Shown here: positions 1-7,134 of the stretch, one piece after another
Position numbering within the stretch: position 1 is the first letter of the stretch
Layout: each line of letters opens with the position of its first letter
Translations under genes and position numbers: made by a program
IMG/VR virus record: IMGVR_UViG_2740892440_000003
DNA: 61,023 bases
Origin: a virus
Taxonomy: Duplodnaviria > Heunggongvirae > Uroviricota > Caudoviricetes
Direction: 5' to 3' (one strand)
The notes under the pieces: generated by a model
Told to the model about the DNA's origin: nothing
What the model saw: only the letters and a program-made list of their open reading frames with translations
Databases searched by the model: none

Positions 1-4
1 TAGA

Positions 5-244
5 CTACGTGGTCCCTCCCTTTGGAGCAGGGGTTGATGAACCTCTTACAATGAAAATACGCGGAGATACCGGTAGCGGGATAGTTACGATAAATGCAAC
101 AATTACGATATTATAAAGCATAAACCTTACCGCGTAATTGTCCTCAGATTCCTCAAGTGCCAATGAGCCTGTACATCGATTTGTGTAATTGCTTGATTTT
201 GATACGTTCACTTTCACTATTAACATAGGTTGAATTATAGACAA
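5..244 (-). CDS. hypothetical small hydrophobic protein at the window edge
   Basis: 79-codon ORF from the supplied track; hydrophobic stretch; no recognisable motif. Confidence 0.15.
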   Translation of the reverse strand: MSIIQPMLIVKVNVSKSSNYTNRCTGSLALEESEDNYAVRFMLYNIVIVAFIVTIPLPVSPRIFIVRGSSTPAPKGGTT

Positions 245-440
245 AATAGGTACAGGCTCTGACTAATGAACAAACTAAAACTTCAAAGCCTTTGAAGACT
301 GTAGTGGTTTACTGGATTTGTCCACCTGCACAGAGGTGATACGCTCATTTCAGAACAACACTGATGCGTGAATGTTTTAGCCCAGAATACTAACGAGAAT
401 GCCGCTCAACTGATTGTTGAGCAGAACTATACTGTAGCGG

Positions 441-933
441 ATGAAGGTTATTACTCTGTTTCAATGCCCGGTTCGCCGGGCGTCGCATAATATGGCCACA
501 CTATCTGATACAATAAAACCGAATAAAACATATCTTGAGGCGGTACTCCGTACAGCGTTGTTAGGAAAGACAGAAGACGAATACGTTGATTTCTTCCTGT
601 CAGGGCTACGCGGGGGGATTACTGAAAAATCCCCACCTGTACCGCAGCTATGGCCCATACTGGCCGGAAATTAAAAAATTATTACTGGAACGCGGTTATG
701 GTAATTTCGGTCGTCTCGTTGACCGTGACGTTCGCAAAATTTACCGTTATGACCGCCCGGCGCTGACGCTCATAGCCGCGACGCGCTACAGCCAGGAGCG
801 TTTTGATAATGGTCAGATATACTCAGCCTGGCATTTACTGCCAGTGTCTGAAGAGGTTGACGACCAGGACTATGAGTTTGAGTCTTACGATTTGGGAGTT
901 GAAGCCTTAGCACAGGCTGGAGAGAAAACTTGA
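441..933 (+). CDS. hypothetical protein, reading frame split by a 1-nt shift at a G6 run (612-617)
   Basis: ORFs 441-674 and 586-933 overlap in different frames; adding one G to the run at 612-617 joins them into one product of about 165 aa. Confidence 0.3.
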
Positions 934-1178
934 AAAAGCGATACTACACAGTAAAGCATGGGACGCTACGAGCATTACAAGAGTTTGCTGACAAGCATAA
1001 CGTTGAGGTGCGCAGGGAAGGGGGGAGTAAAGCTCTGCGCATGTACCGTCCGGACGGGAAATGGCGGACGGTCGTCGATTTCAAAACTAACAGCGTTCCC
1101 CAGGGCGTCCGCGACCGGGCATTCGAAGAATGGGAGCAGATCATCATAGATAACGCATTGCTCCTGAATGCTGATTAA
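930..1178 (+). CDS. hypothetical protein (82 aa)
   Basis: ORF whose start overlaps the preceding stop (930/933), suggesting translational coupling; no motif recognised. Confidence 0.35.
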   Translation: MKKRYYTVKHGTLRALQEFADKHNVEVRREGGSKALRMYRPDGKWRTVVDFKTNSVPQGVRDRAFEEWEQIIIDNALLLNAD

Positions 1179-1182
1179 GAAC

Positions 1183-1210
1183 TCTCCGGCCTAGGGAGAT
1201 TAGGCCGGAG
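1183..1210. terminator. hairpin between convergent genes (possible bidirectional terminator)
   Basis: 9-bp inverted repeat ctccggcct/aggccggag between the 930-1178 (+) and 1220-2524 (-) genes, followed by AT-rich sequence. Confidence 0.4.
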
Positions 1211-1219
1211 ATAAATATA

Positions 1220-2524
1220 CTATATAAACTTAGATATAATATCGTGAATCTGTTGTAGCGGGATATCTTCCATCTTATTCTTAATAAGGGAGCGGTTAGA
1301 TGCTGTCAGTGAAGGCCATTTTGTTTTCCAGGCTAGATATGCTCGCCATGAGTAGCCTGTTTCGTAAGGTTTATTCATATAAGTCATTGAGTGTTCAACC
1401 GCATGCATGTATTTTTTCTCAAAGTTGGTTCCTTTTACTTCAAATAAACCACCGAAATAAATAAGCCATTTTGCCAGGTGTTCATACTGCTCCCATGCGC
1501 CAGACTCTTTAGTAAGTTCTATTTTTTTATCTATTATATCACAAAAAACATTTAATACCTTTTCATCATTCCAGCTATATCCAGATGATGAAATGGAGGA
1601 AATGATATGATAAAAAGAATCCTCTAGCTTCAAGAACTCTATTTTATACTCTCTTCCGTTTTTTATTACCGATTTGATTGAGTGCCTCAATTTGTCTTTT
1701 ATTTTTTTTGCTTCTGGAATTTTATCGTTAAGTTTTCTAAAGAAATCAGACACCTCTGTTTTATCTATAACCCTAATCCCAAAGCAGGAAAAATAGTAAT
1801 CTTTAATAGGTTGCAATAGTTCCCCTCGGGAAATAAGGAAAATATTGGAGGACATTACGTTGTCCCGTGAAAATACCTTATATTCATTTATAATAGCCTT
1901 GAGGTTCGCGTCACTTAGAGAATAGCCAAGGATAACAATAGTGTTTTCATGTAGAACTGTGCTTAGTTTATTAGAAAAGTAAGAATTACCATTTATAAAT
2001 CTGAAATAATCCTCGCTAGTAACAACCATGTCTGATGGGGAGTCTATAGAACCGTGAACATGGTAGACTTTAACCTCACAATTATATTTTGGAATTGGCA
2101 GGCCGGGGGTGATTGTACACGTTCGGTTCTCTCCAGCCAGTTTTTCTGCTAACTTGTCATAATTTGTCGTAATTACTTTGAATGTGTTTTCTTTGAAAAA
2201 GTCTTGAATATATTCAATTGATGGATCAAGTTCGATTGAGGCTATGATTTTCTCAATCTCCTGGTAAATATTTTTCCCCGAAAGTATAAATTTTAGTGCA
2301 ATAACCTGAGCAGCCTCTTCAAGGCTAAGGTCTTTTGCTTTCCCAGCAGGAAATAATTCCTCTTTGAGTGAGTCACCATCCTTCAATAAACCGCACAGTT
2401 GCTCCAATAAAGATTGCCAACTTGGGGCTTTATCATCAGAAACAGCCTTTGAAAATCCAGTGCCTGTAAGAAAGCACAGCCTATGTGTAGCCGCTGCATA
2501 GGCAATTTCTATATACTCGCTCAT
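1220..2524 (-). CDS. SIR2-family (sirtuin-like) protein with a C-terminal helical domain; candidate defence effector
   Basis: 434 aa. N-terminal half carries the SIR2 hallmarks FLTGTGFS (glycine-rich NAD loop), VITTNYD and HVHGS (catalytic His). C-terminal ~180 aa has no recognised motif. Gene is AT-rich relative to its neighbours; GGAG RBS 7 nt upstream. Confidence 0.75.
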   Translation of the reverse strand: MSEYIEIAYAAATHRLCFLTGTGFSKAVSDDKAPSWQSLLEQLCGLLKDGDSLKEELFPAGKAKDLSLEEAAQVIALKFILSGKNIYQEIEKIIASIELDPSIEYIQDFFKENTFKVITTNYDKLAEKLAGENRTCTITPGLPIPKYNCEVKVYHVHGSIDSPSDMVVTSEDYFRFINGNSYFSNKLSTVLHENTIVILGYSLSDANLKAIINEYKVFSRDNVMSSNIFLISRGELLQPIKDYYFSCFGIRVIDKTEVSDFFRKLNDKIPEAKKIKDKLRHSIKSVIKNGREYKIEFLKLEDSFYHIISSISSSGYSWNDEKVLNVFCDIIDKKIELTKESGAWEQYEHLAKWLIYFGGLFEVKGTNFEKKYMHAVEHSMTYMNKPYETGYSWRAYLAWKTKWPSLTASNRSLIKNKMEDIPLQQIHDIISKFI

Positions 2525-2580
2525 TACTTACTCCATTTACTTATAGTTCTACGGAGAAGTATACCCTAATGCATTGACGT

Positions 2581-3222
2581 TTATAGATAATTTCCGTTTC
2601 CTGTTAATACTCCCTTAGGCACTTGTTTTTGCGCCAGTGTTTGAGTGCCGCGAATTATGTTAATCAGAGGACTTAGTAACGATGATTCCTGGCGGGCATC
2701 AACTTCCTCTGCCATTGCCCTGATGTAGTCTGCGCTTGCAACGTTGTTGTATTCCGTTGCGAAGCAGCATAACAACGTCAGAACATGCTCTGTCGTTATT
2801 TCACTCCAGTTGATGTTGAAAAACTCATCGCCTTTTTTATCGTGTTCGGAATCGAAGATGCTTTGGTGGAGGATGTATTTGCCGGATTCCTTGCGCGGTA
2901 ACTTGATCGCTTTCTGGCGTTCCAACTCCTTGTAAATCTGCATTGCTTCAATTAGTACCGGCCTGCCGTTCATGAAGGGATCACGCAACCTTACACGCTG
3001 GCCAACTCGACCGGTAATAAAGCTGTTTTCCTCTTCCACCAGCACGATAAAACCCTTTTCCTCTTTTTCTCGCAATTCGCGCAGCAGCTGGAGTTCCATA
3101 TCGCGGCGGCGTTCAGGGTAGCTGGTCCGCTCAGCCATTATCAGCTCATTGTTGATCCATGCAGCAGTCATTGACGCCGGTTTGCCGACGCTCATTGAAA
3201 CAACGCATATTTTCTTATCCAT
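2581..3222 (-). CDS. hypothetical protein immediately upstream of and co-oriented with the SIR2 gene (operon partner, or an equivalent of P1 mat)
   Basis: ATG at 3222 (the track ORF begins at an upstream GTG, 3249); 213 aa; 56-bp gap to the SIR2 start. Contains a deviant P-loop-like VSMSVGKP and an acidic hhhhEEE stretch (FIVLVEEEN). No confident family assignment. Confidence 0.5.
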   Translation of the reverse strand: MDKKICVVSMSVGKPASMTAAWINNELIMAERTSYPERRRDMELQLLRELREKEEKGFIVLVEEENSFITGRVGQRVRLRDPFMNGRPVLIEAMQIYKELERQKAIKLPRKESGKYILHQSIFDSEHDKKGDEFFNINWSEITTEHVLTLLCCFATEYNNVASADYIRAMAEEVDARQESSLLSPLINIIRGTQTLAQKQVPKGVLTGNGNYL

Positions 3223-3503
3223 AGCGCCCCTACAAAAAAGAAAAGCCACCAGCGGCGGCTTAGCAATACAACTGAAGGTAGCGCCCGGTACTCAGACTGT
3301 GCCGTCCATGGAATATTTGAAAAGGGATCCATCCGTACCGGGCTTGATGTGATTTTGGCAGAAGTAATTTGTCAGATGTCAATTTTTTTATCTGTAAAAA
3401 TGCTATAAACCAATATTTTTATTATTTTTATATGGTTGTAGTAGTAGAGTCTGGGCTATTCCTGCGTCCGGTCTTGATGACCACAAATCACGGAGATTGA
3501 TTA

Positions 3504-3953
3504 ATGAAAAATCGTAGTTTCAACATTATCGCTTCTATTGCTATGGCTCTAATGTTAACTGGGTGTAAACAGTCAGAGATTGATAAACTCTCACTTATCG
3601 GTGAAGACAAGAGTTATCTTGAAGAACAGGACGAAGCCACTTTTGAAAAACGGACTCCAGACATAGAACTTTTTGCATTATACGATAAATCGTCACCTGA
3701 CGCTCAGGAACCACATACCACAGGAATGTTGATTAATGGCAAGGTTGAGTTGAGCATGACAACAAAAGTTGGCAAATATACCTTTATGCAATTAGATGAA
3801 ATGCTTACAAAAGAGTATGGGAAACCTGTTGCGACGAAGGACCATATCTTTGATAAGGCTGCAATCTCTGGTTTGGACTGCATTGAAACTAAAACCTGTG
3901 GTGCTGGTAAGTATTATGAAGTATTCCGAGGAAGGATCGGTTTGTATTATTGA
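3504..3953 (+). CDS. lipoprotein (149 aa)
   Basis: Signal peptide ending in lipobox LTGC; divergent from the SIR2 operon across an AT-rich promoter region. Confidence 0.55.
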   Translation: MKNRSFNIIASIAMALMLTGCKQSEIDKLSLIGEDKSYLEEQDEATFEKRTPDIELFALYDKSSPDAQEPHTTGMLINGKVELSMTTKVGKYTFMQLDEMLTKEYGKPVATKDHIFDKAAISGLDCIETKTCGAGKYYEVFRGRIGLYY

Positions 3954-4103
3954 TTAATGGAGCTGGTTATTTGTACGAAAAAGAAGGGGTTGCATTGCTT
4001 ACTATCACGGAAAAACAATTAAAAGTTGCTCGTCTGGAAGAGGACAAAAAACATTAACAAACAGGGGCATACGCGCCCCAATATTTTAAAAATAATAAAT
4101 ATA

Positions 4104-4664
4104 TTAGTGCATGATATTTGCCATCTCATAGGCGTCAGCCAGCAACCCCATCTCTGACTTGTTCAGCAGGGTGAATTCTTTCTTGCCTCCAACCACGCCA
4201 TCGGCATGAACAGGGACCAGCCAGGGGTATTTTTCTCTTACTTCAGCCGGTGCTGCATGCTGGTGGTGCCATCTACAAAGGGGCAATTGCTTTTTGTGAC
4301 AACCAGGCGTGGTACGACCGGAGATATGGTGCAGGGACACCTCTTCAGATATTACTCCATGCATATAGCAGGCAATGCAGGGGAGAGCGCCAAGAGCATT
4401 GGCTATGCGCCGTTCCTCTGCCGTCGGTGTTCGCCCCTTCAAGCCACGAGATTTTATTTTTACCGCACTTTTCCGCTTTTTACTGGCTGGTGGGCGCTCT
4501 TTCTGTTTAGCGATACGGCGTTCGATAGGATCCCGCATTTTCTGATATTGCGATTCTCGCCAGGCGGGGTCAGCCAACTTTTCCCGTTGCCGAGCGATCG
4601 CTCGTTCTCTGGCTGCCTTCTGCCACTCGCGGCGCTGTTCAAGTTTTTGTTCGATTGTTTTCAT
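4104..4664 (-). CDS. ref: Ref, recombination enhancement function (HNH-type endonuclease)
   Basis: Translation from the internal Met (MKTIEQKLEQRREWQKAARERAIARQ...) matches P1 Ref as I recall it; about 186 aa; Cys/His-rich HNH region (CIACYMHG...HHISGR...CHKKQ). Confidence 0.85.
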   Translation of the reverse strand: MKTIEQKLEQRREWQKAARERAIARQREKLADPAWRESQYQKMRDPIERRIAKQKERPPASKKRKSAVKIKSRGLKGRTPTAEERRIANALGALPCIACYMHGVISEEVSLHHISGRTTPGCHKKQLPLCRWHHQHAAPAEVREKYPWLVPVHADGVVGGKKEFTLLNKSEMGLLADAYEMANIMH

Positions 4665-4907
4665 ATGGCAAAAAAAAGGCGGCCTAATGGCCGCCAATGA
4701 TGTCAAGGAGTGAAGTAATGGCAACGTCTTCGTAGTTGACAAAAACTGCGGCTAAATTATATCAACAAATTAGAGCAATAAAAGATATTTCACTTCATGC
4801 TTGTAACGTTTTTACTTCAATACCTATGTGCTATACTCCTTTTTGATTGATTGGATGCGGAATACAATCCCGCTCTTTTGTGCAGCCTGGCATCTTGCCA
4901 GGCTTTT

Positions 4908-5219
4908 TTATTTCATCATGGAAGCTGTTAACGCTTTGGATCTTGCTGAACTGATTGAAAGGGCATTGTTTACCTTACCCAGGAGTTCGCCAAATTCCGC
5001 CATCACTCTAGTAAGCCCGCGCCGCGCTTCCTCCTCCGTTGCATTCATCACAAAATGTTCAGCACTCCGCATGCTTTTAACGGGGAACGCAACAGATATC
5101 GAGTCGATATCAGGCATCCTGTCGCTCAACTTTACGGTGACAATGACAGATGGTGACTGAATTTGAGAGCTTACGGACAGCACCACATATTTTCCGTCTA
5201 TTTTGAAATCCTTCCGCAT
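4908..5219 (-). CDS. hypothetical protein in the P1 cra/c8 position between cre and ref
   Basis: 103-codon ORF co-oriented with cre and ref; position corresponds to the small cra/c8 genes of P1; sequence not recognised. Confidence 0.3.
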   Translation of the reverse strand: MRKDFKIDGKYVVLSVSSQIQSPSVIVTVKLSDRMPDIDSISVAFPVKSMRSAEHFVMNATEEEARRGLTRVMAEFGELLGKVNNALSISSARSKALTASMMK

Positions 5220-5269
5220 GTGTCACCATAAATATTAAATAATTAGAGCAAACAAGCGCAAATGAGCGG

Positions 5270-6301
5270 CTAATCGCCATCTTCCAGCAGGCGCACCATT
5301 GCACCCGTTTCACTATCCAGGTTACGAATGTAGTTCATGACAATATTTACGTTGGTCCAGCCACCAGCTTGCATGATCTCCGGTATTGAAACTCCGGCGC
5401 GGGCCATATCTCGCGCGGCACCGACACGGGCACTATGTCCAGACCAGGCCAGGTATCGCTGACCAGAGTCATCTTTTGCCCCGTAAATCAATCGGTGAGT
5501 TGCTTCAAAAATCCCTTCCAGGGCGCGAGTTGATAGCTGGCTGGTGGATGATGGCGCGGCAACACCATTTTTTCTGACGCGGCAAAACAGGTAGTTATTC
5601 GGATCATCAGCTACACCAGAGACAGAAATCCATCGCTCAACCAGTTTAGTTACCCCCAGGCTAAGTGCCTTCTTTACACCAGCGGTGCTAACCAGCGTTT
5701 TCGTTCTGCCAATATGGATTAACATTCTCCCACCGTCAGTACGTGAGATATCTTTAACCCTGATCCTGGAAATTTCGGCTATACGTAACAGGGTGTTATA
5801 AGCAATCCCCAGAAATGCCAGATTACGTATATCCTGGCAGCGATCGCTATTTTCCATGAGTGAACGAACCTGGTCGAAATCAGTGCGTTCGAACGCCAGC
5901 GCCTGTTTTGCACGCTCACCGGCATCAACGTTTTCTTTTCGGATCCGTCGCATGACCAGTGAAACAGCATTGCTGTCACTTGGTCGTGGCAGCCCGGACC
6001 GACGATGAAGCATATTTAGCTGGCCCAAATGTTGCTGGATAGTTTTCACTGCCAGACCGCGCGCCTGAAGATATAGAAGATAATCTCGAACATCTTCAGG
6101 TTCTGCGGGAAACCACTTCCGGTTATTCAACTTGCACCATGCCGCCCACGACCGGCAAACGGACAGAAGCATTTTCCAGGTATGCTCAGAAAACGCCTGG
6201 CGATCCCTGAACATGTCCATCAGGTTCTTGCGAACCTCATCACTCGTTGCATCGACCGGTAATGCAGGCAAATTTTGGTGTACGGTCAGTAAATTGGACA
6301 T
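5270..6301 (-). CDS. cre: Cre site-specific tyrosine recombinase
   Basis: 343-aa translation (MSNLLTVHQNLPALPVDATSDEVRKNLMDMFRDRQAF...MVRLLEDGD) is, to my recollection, essentially identical to P1 Cre. Confidence 0.97.
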   Translation of the reverse strand: MSNLLTVHQNLPALPVDATSDEVRKNLMDMFRDRQAFSEHTWKMLLSVCRSWAAWCKLNNRKWFPAEPEDVRDYLLYLQARGLAVKTIQQHLGQLNMLHRRSGLPRPSDSNAVSLVMRRIRKENVDAGERAKQALAFERTDFDQVRSLMENSDRCQDIRNLAFLGIAYNTLLRIAEISRIRVKDISRTDGGRMLIHIGRTKTLVSTAGVKKALSLGVTKLVERWISVSGVADDPNNYLFCRVRKNGVAAPSSTSQLSTRALEGIFEATHRLIYGAKDDSGQRYLAWSGHSARVGAARDMARAGVSIPEIMQAGGWTNVNIVMNYIRNLDSETGAMVRLLEDGD

Positions 6302-6719
6302 TTAACACTCAGATGATGGTTTTAAGTAAAGTGTACAGGATCGGCTCTGCCTTTACCTGTTTATGGTTCTCGTCATAGAAACGCCAGCGACCGCGCGTGC
6401 GTTCTATTTTCTCTTCACCGCGCGATAATGACAGTTGGCAACTATCACGATCAAACCCTTTTGCCCGCCAGTAACCACGGTTTTTCTCAAGCTCAAGATG
6501 AGTGGACACTTTAGCAGTTGAATATCCCATTTTTCACCTCTGATTGGTTGGTGGTGCTAAGTGCGCTACGCGAAATCTGTAGGACTAACACCGCCAACTT
6601 TGCACAGATTTTACGTAGCGCAACCTTGATCAAATGATCAAGTGATCACTATTTGACCTGCTAAAGTATTGAACTGTATGGATTTACAGGTAAATTGATC
6701 ATATTCAATAACCCTTAAT

Positions 6720-6753
6720 ATAACTTCGTATAATGTATGCTATACGAAGTTAT
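6720..6753. other. loxP: loxP recombination site
   Basis: Exact 34-bp match ATAACTTCGTATA-ATGTATGC-TATACGAAGTTAT (13-bp inverted repeats around the 8-bp spacer), about 420 bp upstream of the cre start, as in P1. Confidence 0.97.
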
Positions 6754-6796
6754 CAGGTCCGAAGAGGAGTTTACGTCCAGCTGCGCACAAAAATCA

Positions 6797-6813
6797 AGAA
6801 TTATTAGAGCAAT
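6797..6813 (-). promoter_or_regulatory. C1 operator (Op99-type), 14/17 match to consensus
   Basis: Reverse-complement match to the P1 C1 operator consensus ATTGCTCTAATAAATTT; lies between loxP and coi/c1. Confidence 0.5.
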
Positions 6814-6879
6814 AAATTTTGAGAGAAAAATCCCACTCCACCAGCTAAAAACTGGATTGTTTTTCATAGTTGTTTGACA

Positions 6880-6896
6880 ATTGCTCTAATAAATTA
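6880..6896 (+). promoter_or_regulatory. C1 operator (Op99-type), 16/17 match
   Basis: attgctctaataaatta upstream of coi/c1, consistent with autoregulation of the c1 operon. Confidence 0.65.
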
Positions 6897-7134
6897 TAGT
6901 TTTGCCGCCGTTACGTAATACGACTTTGGATTCACTATTTAATGTGTCTTCAGCGTTGTAGAGCGGCTCAGAAGGAAATGAGCAAACAGGGAAACCTTAT
7001 ACAACGGCATTACAGCTATGCATTGCTCATCTTACACACAGCGCAATGTTGTTAGATTACCCCAGCATGGATCATGGGTGAAACAGTAGGTCAGAGCTTC
7101 AGGCTCTGTGTTGTCAATACAGTGAGGCATAATT

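Follow-up and report, generated by a model that had tools for sequence, protein, structure and literature searches.

Defence NADases with a SIR2 domain, which hydrolyse nicotinamide adenine dinucleotide (NAD+), come in several architectures. DSR2 of Bacillus subtilis is a single polypeptide of about 1000 amino acids (aa), in which an N-terminal SIR2 NADase domain is followed by a middle domain and then by a long C-terminal domain to which the tail tube protein binds. This C-terminal sensor is an alpha-solenoid (PMC11850899). In type I Thoeris, ThsA has a SLOG/STALD domain and depends on ThsB, a TIR protein, and KomC of the Kongming system is a SIR2-only protein of ~270 aa working with KomA and KomB. 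ThsA, KomBC and the SIR2-STAND protein Avs5 have been solved as helical or filament assemblies. A single SIR2_2 gene cloned from a P4 hotspot was described as the pFR88 'SIR2' system (Rousset et al. 2022, PMC9122126). Here we report a gene for a 434-aa SIR2 protein (positions 1220-2524, minus strand) in a P1-like phage-plasmid, IMG/VR record IMGVR_UViG_2740892440_000003 (Caudoviricetes; 61,023 nt, from here: the window), whose immunity and recombination end occupies positions 1-7000. With a probability of roughly 0.6 we read this gene as a self-contained one-protein anti-phage defence, a DSR-like sensor-NADase that would abort infection; the reading is predicted from sequence, structure models and analogy. 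The gene lies between mat and lxc, with the following features:

930-1178, plus strand: lxc, encoding a modulator protein (phrog_2160; lxc is also its name in the annotations of RCS47 and JL22), which forms the conserved right flank of the variable slot
1183-1211, strand not applicable: GC-rich stem-loop of 11 bp (terminator scan; RNA fold -20.8 kcal/mol, z -5.0)
1220-2524, minus strand: SIR2-domain open reading frame (ORF) of 434 aa, the whole of the candidate single-gene system (Pfam SIR2_2, phrog_7567, AlphaFold2)
1223-1759, minus strand: all-helical C-terminal domain (alpha-solenoid, HEAT-like), residues 256-434, the presumed sensor or regulatory domain
1760-2524, minus strand: SIR2 domain of NADase type, residues 1-255 (GTGFS, TTNYD and HVHGS motifs)
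2525-2580, minus strand: mat-SIR2 spacer of 56 nt, with a GGAG Shine-Dalgarno sequence at 2531-2534, six nt before the ATG
2580-2607, minus strand: candidate sigma-70 promoter, TTAACA (2607-2602), 16-nt spacer, TATAAA (2585-2580), found by eye and weak as evidence
2581-3222, minus strand: mat (maturation control), a P1 backbone gene, 213 aa from its ATG (identity to Mat of P1 and RCS47)

The motifs LCFLTGTGFSK, KVITTNYDKL and VYHVHGSIDS, the AT-richness and the score against Pfam SIR2_2 indicate that the 434-aa ORF is real and not a chance ORF. The GC content is 0.32-0.39 across positions 1200-2400 versus 0.47-0.50 in the flanks, PF13289 matches residues 117-251 with 84 bits (cut-off 24.5; E 1.4e-23), and phrog_7567 is matched over the full length of the protein. 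In an alignment of 35 homologues the dinucleotide-binding loop G21-T-G-F-S, the segment T119-T-N121-Y-D123 and H155-x-H157-G-S are invariant. H157 aligns with DSR2 H171, the residue mutated in inactive DSR2 structures. The AlphaFold2 model, built on a 35-sequence alignment, has two domains (predicted local distance difference test, pLDDT, 83; predicted template modelling score, pTM, 0.81), of which residues 1-255 form the SIR2 Rossmann domain; the pTM over the full length predicts a fixed arrangement of the two.

By structure comparison, the SIR2 fold is nearest to the defence NADases KomC, ThsA, DSR2 and Avs5, and DSR2 is the best match both by Foldseek (E 1e-12) and by sequence profile against the PDB (8.5e-11). 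Canonical sirtuins and SirTM were far poorer structural matches. The protein has the GxG loop, the Asn and Asp of TTNYD and the catalytic His of a defence-type NADase; it does not pass as a canonical sirtuin deacylase, judged by closest fold together with a Zn-binding Cys4 module. By predicted fold and catalytic residues, its SIR2 domain thus belongs with the defence NADases, and its activity would be hydrolysis of NAD+, not protein deacylation.

Residues 256-434 (~180 aa) gave an all-helical solenoid when modelled alone (pLDDT 81). A Pfam search of this domain returned no match, and a fold search returned solenoids and no SLOG domain. When a profile of the domain was run against 1.84 billion representative proteins, it produced 94 hits: fragments, proteins of ~406-480 aa with the domain at the C terminus, and one repetitive protein judged spurious. 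All distant full-length hits that were checked carry an N-terminal SIR2_2 domain. The solenoid appears private to this architecture, since the profile hits are confined to it or to fragments. Its mean pairwise identity is 57%, against 70% for the SIR2 half, so that the C-terminal half is the more variable one; it nevertheless holds an invariant set consisting of W344, Q346, Y347, W353, S379, M380, G390, S392, W393, W399, W403, N410 and R411. The first-pass annotation of this DNA, made from the letters, had already given both ORFs (1220-2524, 434 aa; 2581-3222, 213 aa; minus strand), the motifs FLTGTGFS, VITTNYD and HVHGS, the AT-rich composition, the helical non-SLOG character of the C-terminal domain and the location at the P1 res/mod position, and in all these points it was borne out.

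Among the named systems, DSR2 is the closest relative in design. Both proteins are single chains that begin with a SIR2 domain of NADase type, their TTNYD segments and catalytic His align, and the two C-terminal domains are of the same fold class. Unlike DSR2, the window protein has a C-terminal domain of only ~180 aa, which shares no sequence similarity with DSR2. Membership in the family itself was rejected: the score is 30.8 bits for NCBIfam NF041819 (DSR2), which covers residues 117-212 only, and 21.4 bits for NF041818 (DSR1), where the cut-off of each model is 1400.

The PADLOC models were scanned against the window protein and five relatives. In all six, the models for PDC-S25, ThsA, LmuA, Dsr1/2 and SIR2 match the SIR2 half only, and neither PADLOC nor NCBIfam gave a full-length match to any named system. 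The best PADLOC match is PDC-S25 (E 5.9e-24), likewise a single-gene SIR2 candidate. Its profile is matched over positions 127-277 in the window protein and over at most ~24-326 of 517 in the relatives, and its C-terminal half is unrelated to that of the family described here, which speaks against membership. Thoeris was also rejected: the ThsA models match residues 117-235 only, there is no SLOG/STALD domain, the C-terminal domain being helical, and no ThsB was found, the flanking genes being lxc and mat with no conserved neighbour in other contexts. KomC differs in being SIR2-only and in needing KomA and KomB, as the window gene stands without partner genes. For Lamassu, the LmuA model reaches only residues 20-218 in the window protein, its match to other family members extends no further than profile positions 13-255 of 433, and no conserved SMC neighbour was found. 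SIR2-HerA (Nezha) was discarded because the window holds no HerA (DUF87) gene, and Avs5 because Pfam detects no NTPase domain and the protein ends at residue 434 with the helical domain. In sum, no TIR, HerA, SMC, STAND or Argonaute partner for the SIR2 gene was found. The pFR88 system resembles the window gene in being a single SIR2_2 gene of a mobile-element hotspot; it is not the same gene, as the match to the available 92-residue N-terminal fragment is confined to 43 residues of 26% identity around the GxG loop.

The protein belongs to a family of ~430 aa spread across Proteobacteria. Among its 664 database hits the best 120 are all 405-465 aa long (nearly all 431-444) with 54-61% identity over 90-100% of the query; one further hit is a 98%-identical cluster of the window protein. 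The hosts comprise Vibrio, Halomonas, Xenorhabdus, Pseudoalteromonas, Marinobacter, Klebsiella, Pantoea, Pseudomonas, Delftia, Stenotrophomonas and the chromosome of E. coli, and a scan of IMG/VR found the family on ~16 viral contigs not related to P1.

We compared the neighbourhoods of 11 independent non-P1 homologues. The E. coli homologue sits at the integrase end of a lambdoid prophage, and that of K. oxytoca in a P4-like satellite between primase/integrase genes and a gene of the P2 capsid family; Rousset et al. described the defence hotspot of elements of this kind (PMC9122126). The P. putida homologue adjoins Gabija-like OLD/UvrD genes, the one in Pantoea an HD/HD_assoc gene resembling dGTPase, and the Halomonas homologue is part of an island with HNH, HSDR_N and DUF87 genes. 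The others lie at further prophage edges or are isolated insertions. An all-against-all BLASTP of the ORFs within 3.5-4 kb in these 11 contexts found no protein common to unrelated contexts, which argues for a stand-alone gene. Upstream neighbours of ~180-207 aa in Halomonas and Pseudoalteromonas were considered as a conserved partner and rejected, being unrelated to each other and to Mat. In the Halomonas island (contig L007, 8700-11667), a 401-aa gene lies ~1.4 kb and a 591-aa DUF87 (HerA-like) gene 2.6 kb downstream of the SIR2 homologue. The DUF87 gene comes after the 401-aa gene, and other SIR2 contexts do not share it; these two genes probably form a separate HerA-type defence system of two genes in the same island.

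In the P1-like backbone the family occupies a slot of known variability. The res-mod region has been described as 'variable region 1' of P1-like plasmids (PMC9603915): between mat and lxc, P1 holds the type III res-mod genes of EcoP1I and P7 those of EcoP7I. In the window, ref, c8 and cre lie at 4104-6301 and the SIR2 gene stands between mat and lxc as res-mod does in P1 and P7. Res-mod is defence cargo of the same backbone in the same slot, but consists of wholly different genes with another mechanism, on the opposite strand. The slot is empty in RCS47, where only 39 bp separate the mat stop from the lxc stop. In vB_EcoM-673R5 it holds (L018, 2275-3374) two neighbouring ORFs, one for a RelA/SpoT protein of 182 aa and one of 180 aa, whose products align with the first half and the second half, respectively, of a single PADLOC profile, PDC-S33 (349 positions); they look like the pieces of a CapRel-like single-gene defence candidate that has been split or frameshifted. 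The mat gene of this phage appears fragmented.

The cassette that sets the window apart from RCS47 spans 1179, just past the lxc stop, to 2580, the mat stop, and comprises the stem-loop at 1183-1211, the SIR2 gene and the 56-nt spacer with its ribosome-binding site. The stem-loop lies where the lxc stop (1178) and the SIR2 stop (1220) converge, its sequence standing in place of the 39-bp lxc-mat spacer of RCS47, and is likely a bidirectional terminator as well as the left cassette end. The last ~15 mat codons (window 2581-2625 versus 3752-3795 of RCS47, L002) diverge and the rest of the gene is ~97% identical, which places the recombination junction of the cassette inside the 3' end of mat.

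Three further IMG/VR P1-like contigs (L036, L050 and L051) have the same mat-SIR2-lxc layout (match ~4001-5302). Their SIR2 protein is only 58% identical to that of the window, on backbones that are ~95% identical. In PLSDB, 57 plasmids match this second allele type over at least 80% of the query. Of these, 7 reach a nucleotide identity of 99% or more; most of the remaining ones are at ~88% nucleotide identity and apparently form a third class. Altogether ~123 of the 694 mat-bearing PLSDB plasmids (~18%) have a member of the family in the slot, and ~570 carry mat with neither SIR2 allele type. Judged by these sequences, the SIR2 gene is an exchangeable single-gene cargo of the mat-lxc slot, and the 58% divergence between alleles on near-identical backbones is the pattern expected under conflict-driven replacement.

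The locations in mobile elements and defence hotspots, the res-mod and PDC-S33 genes found in the same slot and the allelic diversity all argue for a role in defence. For the C-terminal domain as sensor speak its fold class, shared with DSR2, its restriction to this architecture, its faster evolution compared with the SIR2 half and the predicted fixed arrangement of the domains. The proposed mechanism would run as follows. In the uninfected lysogen the SIR2 protein would be inactive, its C-terminal solenoid, the presumed sensor or regulator, being predicted to pack against the SIR2 effector domain. Infection would bring in a phage component, in most cases presumably a protein, as with DSR2, which would engage the C-terminal domain and thereby free or oligomerise the SIR2 domains, oligomerisation being probable as in ThsA, KomBC and Avs5. 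Hydrolysis of NAD+ by the SIR2 domain would then deplete the cell and abort the infection, which would protect the plasmid-prophage in sister cells. In this scheme we infer the NADase activity, the trigger, the oligomerisation, the abortive outcome and expression during lysogeny. A compact stand-alone SIR2 family of the single-protein sensor-effector kind in a defence hotspot, with a predicted role in defence, is a plausible verdict. A more far-reaching version is possible but doubtful: the protein, at ~430 aa, may be a minimal one-protein immune sensor, whose private solenoid reads a phage cue unlike those of DSR2, ThsA, Kongming or Avs5, and the 58% alleles may represent different phage specificities.

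Several points weigh against the defence reading, and expression is its weakest, because a SIR2 gene that is silent in lysogens could not protect them. The one clear promoter upstream is Pmat/LPmat, which in the P1 annotation is C1-repressed and late. A sigma-70 scan gave the SIR2 gene no promoter of its own, and no terminator was predicted in the mat-SIR2 spacer, so that read-through from mat is likely and the SIR2 gene may depend on Pmat/LPmat. The scan missed the TTAACA-16 nt-TATAAA candidate, which overlaps the mat stop codon, because it requires a T at the last -10 position. The C1 operator Omat, in turn, is not detectable upstream of mat: no site with up to three mismatches occurs between 3200 and 6797, while 14 C1 operators were found elsewhere in the window. 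The insertion of a lipoprotein-like gene (3504-3953) has removed the P1 Omat operator, and mat with read-through into the SIR2 gene may consequently escape C1 repression. The missing operator and the candidate promoter at the mat stop soften the concern about expression.

A second point is that the invariant aromatic residues of the C-terminal domain, kept across distant hosts, would be no less expected of an unchanging ligand pocket or interface than of a rapidly evolving receptor for phage proteins. Moreover, a DefenseFinder survey of ~850 P1-like elements lists type III restriction-modification, dGTPase, PrrC and CapRel but no SIR2 system, from which it follows that current tools apparently do not call the gene. 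In the part of the literature covered by our search, no experiment on this family was found, nor anything specific on PDC-S25 or on SIR2 in P1-like elements.

The conserved aromatics lead to the best-surviving alternative, in which the C-terminal domain binds a small molecule instead of a phage protein, e.g. a nucleotide-derived alarm made by an unlinked enzyme of the host or phage. There are precedents for small-molecule sensing in the SLOG domain of ThsA and in KomB of Kongming, and the nearest SIR2 folds, KomC and ThsA, are both ligand-activated and filament-forming. The invariant W/Y/Q/N/R cluster could form a pocket, and the family is highly conserved across distant hosts. Nevertheless, we consider a small-molecule trigger unlikely: no conserved signal-producing gene lies nearby, a solenoid typically binds proteins and is not a known nucleotide-sensor fold, and the deep allelic divergence within P1 suggests a variable specificity.

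Slightly less likely again is a function unrelated to phages, as a deacylase or ADP-ribosyltransferase of P1 or host physiology, or as an effector in plasmid addiction or competition between mobile elements. The gene is already known as an annotation, RefSeq naming it 'SIR2 family protein' or 'NAD-dependent protein deacylase'. The latter name would agree with such a function, as would the location downstream of a phage late promoter, but the defence NADases match the structure much better than canonical sirtuins and SirTM do, the neighbourhoods share no gene resembling an antitoxin, and the family is found in defence hotspots of unrelated elements. A service to P1 itself during the lytic cycle, either as late superinfection exclusion or by destroying NAD-derived immune signals of the host (counter-defence), could be read from the position behind LPmat and from the richness of P1-like elements in anti-defence genes; it is improbable, given that the same family resides in chromosomal islands and a satellite without any phage late operon and that the protein is unlike known anti-defence folds.

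The first-pass annotation had left the 213-aa upstream protein without a family and had tentatively joined both genes into a two-gene configuration. Comparison with P1 Mat corrected the former point: the protein shares 94% identity with P1 Mat (over residues 38-250 of the 250 aa annotated there) and 97% with the 213-aa Mat of RCS47. It is thus the P1 mat orthologue, an outcome that the annotation itself had named as counting against its reading. An upstream GTG as an alternative start would give 222 aa. Within PLSDB, mat occurs in 694 plasmids and the window-type SIR2 gene in 66. A system of Mat as sensor and the SIR2 protein as effector, for which the shared orientation, the 56-nt distance and the probable co-transcription across a spacer with no predicted terminator could be cited, is therefore the least credible of the alternatives and can be regarded as refuted, since Mat is 94-97% identical to its P1 and RCS47 counterparts, mat occurs without the SIR2 gene in P1, P7, RCS47 and the ~570 PLSDB plasmids, and the 11 other contexts share no neighbour and have none resembling Mat. 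The mat gene is a P1 backbone gene located upstream, probably co-transcribed, and not a functional partner of the SIR2 gene. As for the suggestion of an undescribed SIR2 defence, it held in so far as the domain is of the defence-NADase type and no named system is matched over the full length; the part that fell is the two genes, and the gene is already annotated as 'SIR2 family protein' in more than 120 P1-like plasmids.

If the one-protein defence reading is right and the gene is active, an immune gene apparently missed by current defence finders resides in about one-sixth of the P1-like phage-plasmids of E. coli, Salmonella and Klebsiella, to judge by its presence in 123 of the 694 PLSDB plasmids that have mat. 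As these phage-plasmids also spread resistance genes, the SIR2 gene could shape which phages, including therapeutic ones, are able to infect their hosts. An active protein of ~430 aa would combine SIR2 effector and sensor in one small self-contained chain, DSR1 and DSR2 being more than twice as long. The slot alleles on near-identical backbones constitute a ready experiment on specificity and, if the specificity reading is true, a naturally occurring set of alleles with which the gating of a SIR2 NADase by a small solenoid could be mapped. If inactive, the gene is no more than an accessory gene, already annotated, of a region known to vary.

The remaining features of this end of the window are:

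493/586-933, plus strand: ulx (gene order from the ORF list, Pfam and PHROG)
3504-3953, plus strand: lipoprotein-like ORF of 149 aa (phrog_15156, unknown function)
4104-4742, minus strand: ref (gene order)
4908-5219, minus strand: c8 (gene order)
5270-6301, minus strand: cre (gene order)
6309-6530, minus strand: cra (gene order)

The Pmat/LPmat region is conserved upstream of mat, on the ref side of the slot. Between Pmat and the mat coding sequence, ~20 nt upstream of the mat ATG, a terminator-like hairpin with a T-run (AAGCCGCCGCTGGTGGCTT TTCTTTTTTG) was noticed at 3243-3261 on the minus strand, within what P1 annotates as the N-terminal extension of the 250-aa Mat. It could be an attenuator, or a sign that the start of the 213-aa Mat is the true one. 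The 149-aa ORF, inserted between the mat promoter region and ref, is AT-rich, has a lipoprotein signal (…ALMLTGC) and is absent from P1 and RCS47. It resembles Cor-type exclusion lipoproteins in the signal peptide only and may be a second cargo gene, e.g. for surface exclusion. In ulx, one extra G compared with RCS47 in the G-run at ~611-616 results in two frames (ORFs 441-674 and 586-933); the alternatives for the split gene are a pseudogene of the Ulx anti-restriction component and a homopolymer sequencing error. Homology to P1, RCS47 and other P1-like phages begins only at position 466, and positions 1-465 (GC 0.40) differ from the darB region that lies upstream of ulx in RCS47.

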